The notes under the pieces: generated by a model
Seen by the model: the letters and a program-made list of their open reading frames with translations, nothing else
What the model was told of the DNA's origin: nothing
The model's database searches: none
Program-made: the position numbers and the translations under genes
Source: PVC group bacterium
GTDB lineage: Bacteria; GCA-001730085; JADFSZ01
Reading direction: 5' to 3'
Length of the DNA: 6,722 bases
NCBI GenBank assembly: GCA_022560555.1
Contig: JADFSZ010000097.1
Coordinates: 1-6,722 of the forward strand
Part shown: one piece after another, positions 3,184-6,722 of the stretch
Numbering within the stretch: the stretch's first letter is position 1
Layout of the letters: each line of letters opens with the position of its first letter

Positions 3184-3288
3184 AGTTCAGATGTCAGAGA
3201 CCAGCGGTCAGAGTTCAGAAGTCAGATACTGTCTTCTGTTTTCTGTTATCTGTCTTCTACCTTTGTCATTTATCATTTCTCATTGGTT
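3184..3288. repeat. About 15 contiguous in-phase heptanucleotide units in three sub-families; the first two are inverted relative to each other
   Basis: Plus-strand sub-family 1: AGTTCAG(3184) ATGTCAG(3191) AGACCAG(3198) CGGTCAG(3205) AGTTCAG(3212) AAGTCAG(3219). Sub-family 2: ATACTGT(3226) CTTCTGT(3233) TTTCTGT(3240) TATCTGT(3247) CTTCTAC(3254). Sub-family 3: CTTTGTC(3261) ATTTATC(3268) ATTTCTC(3275) ATTGGTT(3282). The array fills the yggS-proC gap and extends into the last codons of yggS. Confidence 0.85.
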
Positions 3289-3959
3289 TCTAAGACTCCC
3301 TCAAAAACGGCACTGCCGATTCGAAGTATATCCGCGCCTTCTTCCAAAGCCAACGGATAATCGTGACTCATCCCCATAGATAATTTCCATCTTGAATTGT
3401 ATTTTAGCCGCATGTTGTGCAATGCCTTAAATGTGCTGCGAATCCATTCAGCATCATCGGTTAAAGGCGCCATCGTCATCAGACCCAGTATGCGAATATT
3501 CTGACAAGACTCTATCTGATTTAAAACGCTTTCGACCTCTTCGGGGCGGAGGCCCCATTTAGCCTCCTCACCGGATGTGTTCACCTCCAAAAAAACATCA
3601 ACCTTCTTGCCAACTTTTTCGGCTTGTTGATTTATCGCTTGGGCCAATTTCAAACTATCCACAGAATGAATCGTTGAAAATATTTCGAGAGCCGTTTTGA
3701 CTTTGTTGGTCTGCAAATGACCGATCATGTGCCAGCAAAAAGGTTCTTTGATATGACGTATCTTTTCTTTCGCTTCTTGGACTCTATTTTCACCCAAATC
3801 CTGAACATCCAGAGCCATCAATTCACGCACCACTTCGGCAGGAATTGTTTTCGTAACGACAACGAGTCTAATCTCTTGGCTGTTCCGGTGATGTTTCTCA
3901 CAAATGTGCCGGATATGTGTGCGTATCCGATCAAGATTTTCCCGAAGACGCTCCTTCAT
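3273..3959 (-). CDS. yggS: YggS/PLPBP-family pyridoxal-phosphate-binding protein (alanine-racemase-N fold)
   Basis: 228-aa ORF containing [56 protein letters not shown] and [28 protein letters not shown]-like blocks. These are typical of YggS, including the PLP lysine in the VTK motif. Confidence 0.9.
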   Translation of the reverse strand: [228 protein letters not shown]

Positions 3960-3967
3960 GGGGGGCT

Positions 3968-3995
3968 ATTATAGTGAAAACTTTAGAAAAATCAA
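3968..3995 (-). promoter_or_regulatory. Putative sigma70-type promoter for yggS and the downstream minus-strand genes
   Basis: The minus strand reads TTGATT (3995..3990), a 16-nt spacer, then a perfect TATAAT (3973..3968). Only 8 nt (AGCCCCCC) separate the -10 box from the yggS ATG at 3959. This is a motif-based prediction only. Confidence 0.5.
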
Positions 3996-4012
3996 TCCAA
4001 TTATATATATGT

Positions 4013-4022
4013 TGCCCGGGCA
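4013..4022. promoter_or_regulatory. Perfect 10-bp palindrome TGCCCGGGCA directly abutting the -35 box of the plus-strand promoter; possible operator
   Basis: TGCCCGGGCA equals its own reverse complement. It is GC-rich within an otherwise AT-rich spacer and ends 1 nt before TTGACA (4023-4028). Confidence 0.35.
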
Positions 4023-4051
4023 TTGACATTATCTTAATAATTTGATAATGT
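4023..4051 (+). promoter_or_regulatory. Putative sigma70-type promoter for the 813-aa gene
   Basis: A perfect -35 TTGACA lies at 4023-4028. Two -10 readings are possible. One is TAATGT (4046-4051) after a 17-nt spacer, preceded by an extended -10 TG (4043-4044). The other is GATAAT (4044-4049) after a 15-nt spacer. Either puts the transcription start within about 3 nt of the ATG at 4059. Confidence 0.5.
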
Positions 4052-4058
4052 TAAACTT

Positions 4059-6500
4059 ATGAGGAACTCAACCGGAGCTTCTCTCATGGCGGCCATCGTC
4101 ATCATGGTTCTAATAGCCACTTTGGGAGGCACGTTTACATTTCTGATGTCCACGCATTATCGGGCTTTGCCGCTCGATACAGACTTCGCCCAAGCCAACA
4201 GCATCGCACATGCGGGAGTGGAGTGGACCTTAAAAAATCTCATTCCGACTGCGAGTCCCATCCCATTTGCCGGAGGGACATTCAGTGTGACTCAAGATGG
4301 AAACGTATTTACGGTTACCGCACGTCATGGATCTGCCCGTGTCATTTTTACGGTGTCGCCTCCAGCGGTTCTGAGCCTCATCCTCATACCTTCTAACGGA
4401 CCAACAGGAACACTTCTTACGATTCAGGGGCAGGGATTTCAATCAAATGAAACCCTCAACTTAGCCAGCTCGAAATATGGAACGGAACCTCCTGTGCTTT
4501 TGATCAATCTTACCGACACGGGAACATTTGCCGGGGATTCCATATCCGGCACGAACAATGAACTCGTCACAACGGACACAATCGGAAATTTTGAAGTGAC
4601 ATGGGTTGTGACATGGATCACGGATCCCGGGGGAGTGTCGGTCCCCTATGAAATTGATTCCGCCAATGGAACCTCGGACCCGAGTTCGGTTGTCTTCACC
4701 GTAACCCAAGATCCGAGTTATGTCATATTGATTTCGCCCATTTTTGGGTATCCGGGCACAATACTCACTATCACGGGTTTTAACTTATCGGCAAGTACCA
4801 CTTACAACCTTGAAGATGGATTTGGAACCCGTTTAACAACGTTTACGGATGTGGATAACGGAACCTATGATGGCGATGCTGTGGGCGGTCCATCCAATCG
4901 AGATATTACAACAGATATTTCGGGTGGATTTCAAATCACATGGCGGGCCAATCAAGAACCAACAGCAGACTTTGGTGATACCATTGATATCCGGGGAGGT
5001 GGCTTTACGGCCGGGTTTCTTTTTACAGCTTTACGCCCCCTTCTCACATTAACTCCGTCATCCGTGGAAGAAGACGACACCATGCTCGTCCGAGGTGATG
5101 GCTTTTACAGAAACAATGCTGCAGAAACAGGTTTTCGTATGGATTATGACTCGGGTCCTGACCGGCTTGAAAATATGTTGGATACATCCACATTTTTCGG
5201 CGATAGTATTTCCGGCGGAGCCAATGATCGTGTCAATGCAAATGCGGACGGTAAATTTGAATTTGTTTGGACGGTTAATTCATCGAACCTTAGAAAGGGA
5301 TCAACCATCTCGTCCGGAACCCACAATATCGATAAAAAAGGCGGCGGTCAAGATCCGGCCGCGGCTGAATTTACGTTTACTAAACCCGGCGTTATTCGTC
5401 AGCTGACAATAGCCATTACAGGAGAAGTACAAGCCCTTCAAGTTGGATTCTTGAATGACGATTCCGGGGACACGCAGTTTCCGGATGTGGCCATTGGGAC
5501 AAAAACAGGCAAAAATTCCGGCAGGGTTGAGATTTGGCTCAATACCGCGGATGAAACCGGTAACATCACGTCTCATAGCACATTCACTGCGAACAACAGT
5601 GTCAATGCCCTAGCTCTTTCAGCCATTCAAGGGGGTGATACCGACGACGATATCATGGTCGGGAACAACGCTAAGGGATCCAATGCCATTGAAATTTGGA
5701 TCAATGATGGGACAGGAACTTTTACAGAAGATAACAACAGTCCTTACAATGCCAATAAAAAAGTTCTTGCGGTAACCCATGCCGACATGGATGGTGACGA
5801 TACGGATGATCTGATCTATGGGGACGATGATAAGAAAATTACGGTCCGACTTCATACGGGGAATGCTGATTTTGGCTCCGCATTAACAGTGTCACTTAAT
5901 AAAAAACCCTTAGCCCTTGCGGCAGGCAATATCTCTGAAGACACAAATGGAGACATAGATATTATGGCTGGCACTGATGATAAAAACGGCGAAATTAAAG
6001 TGACCGAAAACGATGGCGCGGGAAATCTCAGTGAGGAAAGCAGCAGCCCCTACAATACCTCCGGTAAACAGGTGCGAGCCATAGATGCGGGTGATATGAA
6101 TGCGGACGGATTTATTGATATCGTTGTTGGGACACGCAACGGAGCTGCGAATCGCGAAATCGAAGTCTGGCTCAACAATGGAGATGGGACTTTTACGAAG
6201 GATGATGATTATGAAATTGCATTAAAAATTAATGCATTGAAGCTTGGAGACATAGATAATGATGGTGACTTGGACGTAGTTATTGGCGTTGAAATCCCGG
6301 GAAACACGGGGCAGGTGGAAGTATGGCTGAACGATGGCAGCGGAAATCTTACAGAAGACACGAACAGCCCCTTTGCGGTCGATGGGAAAGTCCTTGCTCT
6401 TGATCTTGGCGATATGGATCAAGATGATACAATCGATATCGTGGCAGGAACAAAAACAGGAGGATCAACAGGCAATATTGTCATTTTATTTTTAGATTAA
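4059..6500 (+). CDS. Large secreted or pilus-associated protein: PilX/GspK-like hydrophobic N-terminus, 3 IPT/TIG-like modules, and a seven-blade FG-GAP/VCBS beta-propeller
   Basis: 813-aa uninterrupted ORF. Residues 1-60 include TGASLMAAIVIMVLIATLGGTFTFLMS followed by AQANSIAHAGVEW. Residues ~103-443 hold three ~110-aa modules opening with IPT-like LILIPSNGPTGTLLTIQGQGF, ILISPIFGYPGTILTITGFNL and LTLTPSSVEEDDTMLVRGDGF. Residues ~444-813 hold seven repeats of the type GDIDNDGDLDVVIG...GQVEVWLNDGSGNLTE. I saw no cysteine on reading; the protein is rich in D, T, G and N. An alternative start exists at the ATG at 4086. Confidence 0.85.
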   Translation: MRNSTGASLMAAIVIMVLIATLGGTFTFLMSTHYRALPLDTDFAQANSIAHAGVEWTLKNLIPTASPIPFAGGTFSVTQDGNVFTVTARHGSARVIFTVSPPAVLSLILIPSNGPTGTLLTIQGQGFQSNETLNLASSKYGTEPPVLLINLTDTGTFAGDSISGTNNELVTTDTIGNFEVTWVVTWITDPGGVSVPYEIDSANGTSDPSSVVFTVTQDPSYVILISPIFGYPGTILTITGFNLSASTTYNLEDGFGTRLTTFTDVDNGTYDGDAVGGPSNRDITTDISGGFQITWRANQEPTADFGDTIDIRGGGFTAGFLFTALRPLLTLTPSSVEEDDTMLVRGDGFYRNNAAETGFRMDYDSGPDRLENMLDTSTFFGDSISGGANDRVNANADGKFEFVWTVNSSNLRKGSTISSGTHNIDKKGGGQDPAAAEFTFTKPGVIRQLTIAITGEVQALQVGFLNDDSGDTQFPDVAIGTKTGKNSGRVEIWLNTADETGNITSHSTFTANNSVNALALSAIQGGDTDDDIMVGNNAKGSNAIEIWINDGTGTFTEDNNSPYNANKKVLAVTHADMDGDDTDDLIYGDDDKKITVRLHTGNADFGSALTVSLNKKPLALAAGNISEDTNGDIDIMAGTDDKNGEIKVTENDGAGNLSEESSSPYNTSGKQVRAIDAGDMNADGFIDIVVGTRNGAANREIEVWLNNGDGTFTKDDDYEIALKINALKLGDIDNDGDLDVVIGVEIPGNTGQVEVWLNDGSGNLTEDTNSPFAVDGKVLALDLGDMDQDDTIDIVAGTKTGGSTGNIVILFLD

Positions 6501-6527: not shown

Positions 6528-6722
6528 TCACCGGCCCCGCGCCCAGACAAACACATGTACATCTTTGGCCGAGGATTGTTTCAATGTTTTCGCACACTCG
6601 TTGAGAGTACTTCCTGTTGTCATGACATCATCCACGATAAGAATCGTTTTTCCGGCAACAACATTTTTTTGGGGCACGTCAAAAGCGCCCTGAATCACAG
6701 AAATGCGTTCATGTTTATTTAA
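6528..6722 (-). CDS. comF: ComF-family protein / type I phosphoribosyltransferase-fold protein, C-terminal 64 codons; the 5' end runs off the right edge
   Basis: This ORF is absent from the supplied track because the window truncates it. The reverse complement from 6722 reads LNKHERISVIQGAFDVPQKNVVAGKTILIVDDVMTTGSTLNECAKTLKQSSAKDVHVFVWARGR, ending at a TGA stop (6530..6528). The R..N..GAF...GK.ILIVDDV.TTG.T pattern is the ComFC/PRTase C-terminal signature. Confidence 0.8.
   Translation of the reverse strand, partial: LNKHERISVIQGAFDVPQKNVVAGKTILIVDDVMTTGSTLNECAKTLKQSSAKDVHVFVWARGR

Follow-up and report, generated by a model that had tools for sequence, protein, structure and literature searches.

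A modular protein with a candidate apical minor-pilin module, Ig-like repeats and an FG-GAP propeller in an uncultured PVC-group bacterium

Introduction

Modular type IV pilins have been surveyed in a set of 1,219 proteins, with PilB (vWA module) and PilC (lectin module) of S. sanguinis as examples (Raynaud et al. 2021; PMC8179133). Dataset S1 of that survey contains about 15 proteins, in 9 architectures, that combine the pilin motif with FG-GAP repeats (IPR012902-IPR013517), and 5 proteins that combine it with IPT/TIG; one FG-GAP entry has three IPR033764 repeats before its FG-GAP repeats (PMC8179133). Here we describe a gene for an 813-amino-acid protein on a DNA stretch of 6,722 bp (the window), which is the complete contig JADFSZ010000097.1 of an NCBI metagenome-assembled genome (MAG) labelled 'PVC group bacterium'. 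Like the modular pilins, this protein has a small N-terminal pilin module, a short linker and bulky binding modules, and would be expected at a filament tip; unlike the surveyed proteins, which were found via IPR012902, it has no N_methyl match and lacks the glutamate at mature position 5 (Glu5). We show that its N-terminal module is homologous to a family encoded at the apical minor-pilin position of pilin operons, and the protein is probably a one-piece pilus-tip adhesin.

With regard to the tip of type IV filaments, a 2026 study of tip complexes treats GspK, PilK, PilX, ComGG, MshP and CpaL as equivalent occupants of one slot (here the K slot), which is invariably without Glu5 and the most apical (PMC12918778). 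The protein shares with GspK, PilK, PilX, MshP and ComGG a short (here putative) leader ending in Gly and the lack of Glu5, and the relatives of its N-terminal module hold the last minor-pilin gene position. Unlike these pilins, it has a minimal body without the GspK alpha-domain, a cargo of ~710 amino acids (aa) and no partner pilin genes nearby. CpaL of the Caulobacter crescentus Tad pili likewise combines, in one chain, a minor-pilin-like module of the GspK/PilK slot and a large adhesin-type domain; it has been proposed to sit at the tip, where one protein would do what PilK and PilY1 do in two, and its extreme C-terminal strand has been proposed to complement its own pilin sheet (PMC12607857; PMC12918778). 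However, the cargo of CpaL is a vWA domain with a metal ion-dependent adhesion site, and its system is of the Tad (type IVc) kind. It was also reported that the large tip pilins of the Myxococcus Kil (Tad) system, KilN, carry variable exposed domains, are encoded at several loci away from the machine and are interchangeable (PMC12075869). In contrast to the lone gene described here, each Kil tip comes from a set of three genes (KilL/M/N); the system is of the Tad type and the cargo folds differ.

The C-terminal part of the protein recalls PilY1/PilC and MshQ, in that these are also large proteins with a beta-propeller of Ca-binding type, found at the pilus tip with an apical minor pilin, and some PilY1 proteins have N-terminal FG-GAP repeats (Dataset S2; PMC8179133). 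PilY1, on the other hand, is not a pilin, and its propeller (IPR008707) represents a different family. A preliminary description of the window had proposed that the protein joins the roles of PilX and PilY1; as its propeller is of integrin type and not homologous to that of PilY1 by sequence, this resemblance is one of functional analogy only. The integrin alpha-subunit head belongs to the same seven-blade FG-GAP repeat family and has DxNxDGxxD Ca loops, although integrin alpha is part of a eukaryotic heterodimeric receptor and its sequence similarity to the propeller studied here is confined to two blades. Dataset S1, where the FG-GAP examples are uncharacterised, does not list, as such, three TIG-like modules joined to a full seven-blade propeller. 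It was an overstatement, given the pilin/FG-GAP entries of PMC8179133 and the CpaL precedent, that the protein does not belong to a described family, while the exact combination is indeed unlisted.

The N-terminal module and its relatives

The protein is composed of an N-terminal module (aa 1-100), three Ig (immunoglobulin)-like modules and a propeller (Table 1). The open reading frame (ORF) list contains the single 813-aa ORF exactly as it had been described, and the three-part anatomy assigned to it was borne out by internal repeats, Pfam matches and hydropathy.

An exhaustive phmmer search with aa 1-445 against 1.8 billion proteins returned 11 proteins (expect values, E, of 9e-10 to 7.5e-4). 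These match over their first ~100 aa only, always at their own N-terminus, and their C-terminal parts, of 0 to ~430 aa, are unrelated. The cargo is Cys-rich and ~430 aa long in P0015, a repeated domain in P0042 and a ~150-aa domain in P0031/P0041. When the full protein or aa 1-104 served as the query, word-indexed searches yielded near-identical fragments and FG-GAP proteins only, and scans of GTDB representative genomes and JGI metagenomes yielded no full-length relative. Locus scans with the family alignment found nothing in one scan and two MAG loci in another.

The genomic positions of the relatives are consistent. At all seven loci that were read (L002, L003, L004, L006, L007, L010 and L014), the family member lies 3′ of one to four Glu5 prepilin genes with G/A-FTLIE, or a close variant, at the cleavage junction (hyphen). 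In the case of P0015 and P0016, the closest long relatives, three prepilin genes come first and the family member is fourth (in L005, what is seen upstream of P0015 is the tail of a third-pilin homologue), and the P0042 gene follows one prepilin gene. L007 and L010-L012 are full clusters around P0031/P0041, which comprise an MshE-type ATPase, a T2SSF platform, a 109-aa pilin, more prepilin genes, the family member, PilM and a secretin. The gene order at these loci is H/I/J, then K.

Profile comparisons lead to the same group of pilins. Against a large protein collection, the family profile matched MshP-like proteins of 142-160 aa (E 1.6e-6 to 4e-4), one of which is named MshP at its source, and hhalign aligned the N-module family to this MshP-like group over 69 columns spanning the leader and the whole helix (98.3% probability, E 2e-14). 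The genes for these MshP-like proteins come last in MSHA-type minor-pilin operons, and at L002 the operon adjoins genes for the MshE ATPase and a 1,250-aa MshQ-like protein. The MshP-named protein, P0047, aligns with PilX_N over the full length of the profile and scores 24.5 bits, below the cutoff of 25.5, and 7 of 10 relatives match the N-terminus of the NCBIfam GspK model (its first ~55-79 positions; E 1.6e-5 to 0.6), all at scores far below the cutoff of 130 bits. Among the relatives, N_methyl is matched by P0042 only (E 0.2). Because only the relatives match the PilX_N and GspK models, the link of the protein itself to these models is transitive. Against the PDB, the family profile gave weak matches, which at E<=1 are all type IV filament subunits.

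Gly6 is invariant in the 12- and 18-sequence family alignments (19-38% identity) and is usually preceded by Lys or Arg; four glycines are invariant in the family alignment. Past the hydrophobic part, the family shares A-x-A-G-x-E-W and then G-G-G-T-F-x-V, which opens a small beta unit. Glu at +5 is found in no member, and the residue at mature position 5 of the protein is Ala11. As judged from the sequence, the lack of Glu5 would rule out a major, H, I or J-type pilin, although not a K-type one.

With translation from Met1, the leader/helix junction reads MRNSTG-ASLMAAIV, that is, a short and basic leader with Gly at -1 before the hydrophobic segment, and cleavage by prepilin peptidase is predicted after Gly6. 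A hydropathy scan of the whole protein revealed a single strongly hydrophobic segment (aa 7-30) and no further transmembrane-like one. The protein has no Cys, for which reason a lipoprotein was rejected as an explanation of the N-terminus. A Tad N-terminus of the TadE/G type was also rejected, on the basis that it has no Pfam match and that the clusters of the relatives hold an MshE-type ATPase, PilM and a secretin. No Ala-x-Ala site follows the hydrophobic stretch, and the helix is unbroken to residue 60. By eye, the FG-GAP and Ig-module homologues of the cargo begin with Sec-type-looking signals that end in an Ala-x-Ala-like manner, which sets the N-terminus of the protein apart from them; the protein therefore looks like a K-slot pilin module grafted onto cargo that is normally secreted by the Sec pathway.

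An AlphaFold2 (AF2) model of residues 1-111, for which the 18-sequence family alignment was used, has a predicted local distance difference test score (pLDDT) of 89.5. It comprises a helix of 57 residues (4-60; mostly >90) and strands at 68-70, 73-80, 83-90 and 93-99 (pLDDT about 96), and suggests a minimal pilin lollipop fold made of one helix and four strands. Taken together, remote homology, the operon position of the relatives, profile-profile comparison and the AF2 model place the N-module in the apical, Glu5-less minor-pilin class, and its assignment to the PilX/GspK/MshP slot is supported, though indirectly.

Some loci of the relatives have additional features. L014, from a MAG labelled Deltaproteobacteria bacterium, contains a separate FG-GAP/VCBS gene (100-1425) ~1.3 kb 5′ of the minor-pilin operon of the closest relative, and thus FG-GAP and the N-module pilin family co-occur there as separate chains. 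At the same locus, P0016 (116 aa; 4217-4567) and the next ORF (396 aa; 4637-5827) correspond to the single 532-aa P0015 (L005 329-1927); the gene could have been split by a stop codon or frameshift, as a pseudogene or through an assembly error. A Wzy_C (O-antigen-ligase-like) gene is located between the genes for the 109-aa pilin and the minor pilins in L010 (7059-8885) and L012 (2389-4215), and may act in pilin glycosylation. At L009, a partial gene (1-333) 5′ of P0032 ends in a domain resembling the C-terminal cargo of P0032 itself, which suggests tandem paralogues of the N-module family.

Coding status and translation start

The ORF is a real gene under purifying selection, since the ratio of nonsynonymous to synonymous substitution rates (dN/dS, omega) is low in comparison with the sister-strain MAG GCA_022561295.1, where the gene copy is divided between contigs L001 and L015 (0.13 over aa 1-376, 0.17 over aa 415-813). 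Constraint is strongest in the pilin module (omega 0.05, dS 0.37). Within this module lies a divergent tract (Table 1) that accounts for 24 of the 58 differences from L001, 20 of the 24 being silent, whereas the flanks diverge by 1-3%. The tract resembles the outcome of recombination, or mosaicism, or else the consensus of a mixed population.

Annotations of the start codon conflict. The NCBI entry (MCH7505105.1, 'VCBS repeat-containing protein', 804 aa) and the call of fragment P0012 start at Met10, whereas the sister MAG copy, P0001, starts at Met1. A GGAG is present at 4074-4077, 8 nt 5′ of Met10, while nothing resembling a Shine-Dalgarno motif precedes Met1. The nine codons before Met10 are open, and Arg2 and Gly6 fall on the basic and invariant-Gly columns of the family. 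Met1 appears much more likely to be the start than Met10, because residues 2-9 fit the leader pattern of the N-module family alignment, including the basic residue and Gly6. Codons 1-17 are identical in both strains, and therefore carry no selection signal for the start region. Most genes on the contig have no recognisable Shine-Dalgarno motif and two have TTG starts; start prediction based on this motif may be unreliable in the source organism. A -35/-10 pair picked by eye upstream of Met1 failed the rule of the promoter scan, and no leaderless transcript is claimed.

The Ig-like modules and the FG-GAP propeller

Amino acids 101-444 consist of three internal repeats of ~113 aa with 28-33% mutual identity (E 2e-13 and 2e-12). 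Pfam TIG scores 18.5 and 15.6 bits with modules 1 and 2, and 18.1 bits with the full protein, against a gathering score of 20.9, and these matches span only profile positions ~6-31 of 84; module 3 alone matches no Pfam family at E<=10. When a module profile, made of the three copies and matched segments from other proteins, was compared with the PDB, it matched neocarzinostatin (1e-3), plexin IPT (7e-3) and Bacteroides IPT/TIG proteins (0.14-0.16). The homologous modules in P0014 and P0039 have significant TIG matches. 'IPT/TIG-like Ig modules' would thus be a fair label at marginal significance. The three such modules of the preliminary description stand as three repeats with Ig-like matches among solved structures, and fall short in that TIG lies below the Pfam gathering score and module 3 is unmatched. 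The IPR033764 repeats mentioned in the Introduction are, as we assume, Ig-like SD-repeat B domains.

The propeller is matched by FG-GAP_3 over five stretches (E=5.8e-25, 88 bits against a cutoff of 26.9) and by FG-GAP; at E<=1, the Pfam matches of the whole protein are FG-GAP_3, BBS7 propeller, FG-GAP, TIG and BBS2_Mid only. Seven repeats align cleanly, with blades at about 453-505, 506-559, 560-607, 608-661, 662-713, 714-767 and 768-813. The loops at aa 679 and 731 align to the integrin alpha-4 Ca loops DLNADGFSD and DIDNDGFED, and two weaker DxDxDGxxD-like copies (aa 576-584 and 785-793) bring the loops to four. Among solved structures, the propeller sequence matches integrin alpha-4 alone (E 6e-4). 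The seven-blade FG-GAP/VCBS propeller with Ca-type loops that had been proposed for this part of the protein is therefore confirmed. The propeller of PilY1/PilC (IPR008707; Pfam Neisseria_PilC) was not detected in Pfam at E<=1, and no PilY1 chain appeared in the PDB sequence search.

Table 1. Location of the features in the window and the basis of each assignment
Feature	Position	Strand	Basis
Whole gene, 813-aa modular protein	4059..6500	+	ATG start; ORF list, NCBI record
Putative class III (prepilin) leader MRNSTG, aa 1-6	4059..4076	+	Ends in family-invariant Gly6, the putative -1 residue
Alternative start Met10	4086..4088	+	NCBI annotation; call of fragment P0012
Predicted alpha-1 helix, aa 7-60	4077..4238	+	Hydrophobic aa 7-30, then amphipathic half with A-x-A-G-x-E-W
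Predicted four-strand antiparallel beta-meander, aa 68-99, followed by Pro-Pro linker	4260..4355	+	AF2 strands
Divergent tract inside the pilin module, codons 46-100	4196..4358	+	~15% nucleotide divergence from the sister strain
Ig-like (IPT/TIG-like) module 1, aa 101-213	4359..4697	+	Internal repeat; TIG E 0.0021, below cutoff
Ig-like module 2, aa 214-326	4698..5036	+	Internal repeat; TIG E 0.016
Ig-like module 3, aa 327-444	5037..5390	+	Most divergent; aligns to modules 1 and 2
Seven-repeat FG-GAP/VCBS beta-propeller, aa 445-813	5391..6497	+	Pfam FG-GAP_3; seven-repeat alignment
Ca-binding-type loops DMNADGFID (aa 679-687) and DIDNDGDLD (aa 731-739)	6093..6275	+	Motif scan; alignment to integrin alpha-4
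yggS, divergent upstream neighbour	3273..3959	-	Pfam, NCBI names
ComF-type phosphoribosyltransferase C-terminus, convergent downstream neighbour	6528..6722	-	Six-frame translation; Pribosyltran match on sister contig L015

Proposed function and alternative explanations

On balance, we lean towards reading the protein as a modular minor pilin that takes the apical slot, the position of GspK, PilK, PilX, MshP and CpaL. Translation would start at Met1, the hydrophobic alpha-1 helix would insert into the inner membrane, and prepilin peptidase would cut off MRNSTG after Gly6. Assembly could then be primed together with Glu5-bearing partner minor pilins encoded elsewhere in the genome. Because Glu5 is absent, the protein would be confined to the very top of a type IV filament, as the literature on the slot indicates. 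Filament extension would present the Ig stalk and the Ca-loop propeller at the tip, where the propeller may bind a surface, a glycan or a protein ligand, as judged from FG-GAP propellers and other modular pilins.

A number of observations weigh against this assignment. The PilX_N match foreseen in the preliminary description was not obtained: searches of Pfam and NCBIfam with the full protein and with aa 1-104, at E<=10, gave no match to PilX_N (PF14341), N_methyl (PF07963 / IPR012902), T2SSK/GspK (including NCBIfam T2SS_GspK, NF037980) or any other pilin hidden Markov model (HMM). The PilX/GspK-class anchor of that description survives through the remote homology, operon position, hhalign result and AF2 model of the N-module. 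A Foldseek search of the N-module model against the PDB gave no significant match (best E 0.37); of the matches, only those to EpsI/GspI (ranks 1, 2 and 4) and to the Thermus pilin TTHA1218 are long (E 0.37-0.88; template modelling score 0.30-0.46), the rest being short hairpins, and we take this likeness to pilins as a hint only. The full-length AF2 model, computed from a single sequence, was unusable (pLDDT 32) and was discarded. The profile similarity lies partly in the hydrophobic helix, which inflates scores, although a composition artefact would not readily explain the conserved polar motif beyond the helix or the uniform operon positions. The NCBI start at Met10, with its upstream GGAG, would delete the leader and Gly6. 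Ca binding by the loops and ligand binding by the propeller are both inferred from the sequence. Finally, no pilus genes were seen on the contig or on the sister contigs, and the gene is the sole family member examined that has housekeeping genes instead of pilin neighbours.

The last of these points is the main support for another explanation, to which we would give roughly one chance in four, namely that the N-module is a pilin-derived membrane anchor used without a filament. A signal-anchor, cleaved or not, would then keep the Ig stalk and the propeller bound to the cell as a binding protein, either on the outer side of the cytoplasmic membrane or within the periplasm. The isolated location of the gene is unlike that of every relative examined, and a protein without a direct pilin HMM match would also fit an anchor. 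To our knowledge, PVC-group genomes encode many proteins with pilin-type N-termini for which no filament role has been demonstrated. However, selection constrains the pilin module more tightly than the rest of the gene, and this module retains the invariant Gly6, the A-x-A-G-x-E-W motif and the beta-sheet, all of which would be superfluous in a simple anchor. Tip-pilin genes distant from their machinery are, moreover, known from the Kil tips. It is rather improbable that the protein instead forms the GspK-like tip of a periplasmic pseudopilus resembling that of the type II secretion system (T2SS), with a propeller that recognises secreted substrates or the secretin. The relatives do match the GspK N-terminus of NCBIfam, their clusters (MshE-type ATPase, T2SSF, PilM and secretin) could, by Pfam content, belong to either type IV pili or a T2SS, and the best, although non-significant, fold matches are to the T2SS pseudopilin EpsI. 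On the other hand, the nearest named relatives are MshP-like and come from operons for MSHA-type pili that also encode a large MshQ-like protein, the alpha-domain specific to GspK is missing, and ~700 aa of cargo on a long Ig stalk would seem better suited to extracellular reach.

Least probable of all, in our opinion, is an ordinary secreted or anchored VCBS-repeat protein that starts at Met10 and resembles pilins merely as a by-product of its hydrophobic N-terminus. The NCBI and P0012 calls, the GGAG before Met10 in the absence of such a motif before Met1, and the lack of a direct pilin HMM match would agree with it. Yet the open codons before Met10 encode a basic residue and a Gly at the family-invariant column, and other genes of the contig are likewise without clear Shine-Dalgarno motifs. 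A start at Met10 would leave no charged n-region; the hydrophobic stretch is not followed by an Ala-x-Ala site, and the helix continues to residue 60; the homology reaches well beyond the hydrophobic part, into A-x-A-G-x-E-W and the beta-sheet; and chance cannot explain the operon positions of the relatives.

A further, more speculative proposal builds on the apical minor-pilin assignment. The N-module might define a clade of minimal K-slot pilins that swap cargo freely and escape HMM libraries, and the gene described here might be a free-standing plug-in tip that lies apart from any pilus locus, does the jobs of PilX and PilY1 in one polypeptide and caps any type IV filament of the cell; we regard this as possible but doubtful. 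If it were true, tip specificity could be changed by the acquisition of one gene. The silent-site mosaic tract at 4196-4358 could reflect recombination that keeps the pilin module matched to the resident machinery.

Within the known modular-pilin design, the present protein is set apart by an N-module family that is invisible to HMMs and has swappable cargo, by the Ig stalk and FG-GAP propeller carried by a candidate K-slot pilin, and by the isolation of its gene. If the protein does occupy a filament tip, an integrin-type Ca-loop propeller on an Ig stalk would join the tip modules that set the specificity of type IV filaments. It appears that current HMMs can miss apical-slot pilins entirely; the present one is named 'VCBS repeat-containing protein' at NCBI and annotated from a start that deletes its leader. 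As the N-module escapes these models, surveys of modular pilins based on IPR012902 would undercount the class. The protein is also a compact subject for examining the 2026 proposal, according to which a tip complex requires a strand from either the adhesin or the K-slot pilin. Its source is an uncultured PVC-group bacterium, which for now limits the practical impact.

Genomic context

The gene stands alone, as the preliminary description had noted, in a window that is the whole contig, between housekeeping genes and a ComF-type gene. Scans of the window for Rfam families and tRNAs found none, and a promoter and terminator scan was uninformative, with counts near those expected from shuffled sequence. 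Upstream, a run of housekeeping genes on the minus strand reads yggS-proC-yggT-yggU-MTAP-ileS, in which MTAP denotes an MTAP-type phosphorylase and ileS is partial.

The sister contig L001 (JADFRM010000301.1) matches the window over 3273-5187 only and is broken at both ends. An IS1595-type transposase (L001 1-438) takes the place of proC upstream of yggS, and past codon 376 the gene runs into NAMPT-like sequence (L001 2354-2584). The break could stem from a rearrangement, or from a chimeric assembly at the repeated Ig modules, and L001 was rejected as evidence on gene structure because both of its ends, at the IS1595 transposase and the NAMPT-like fusion, are broken.

Downstream, the ComF-type gene is separated from the 3′ end of the gene by 27 nt, and its copy on L015 occupies 1230-1979. 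The name ComF derives from competence (DNA uptake) systems, which employ type IV filaments; the orientation of the two genes and the housekeeping setting suggest that their adjacency is a coincidence. In the sister MAG, the ComF-type gene is followed by LptF/G.

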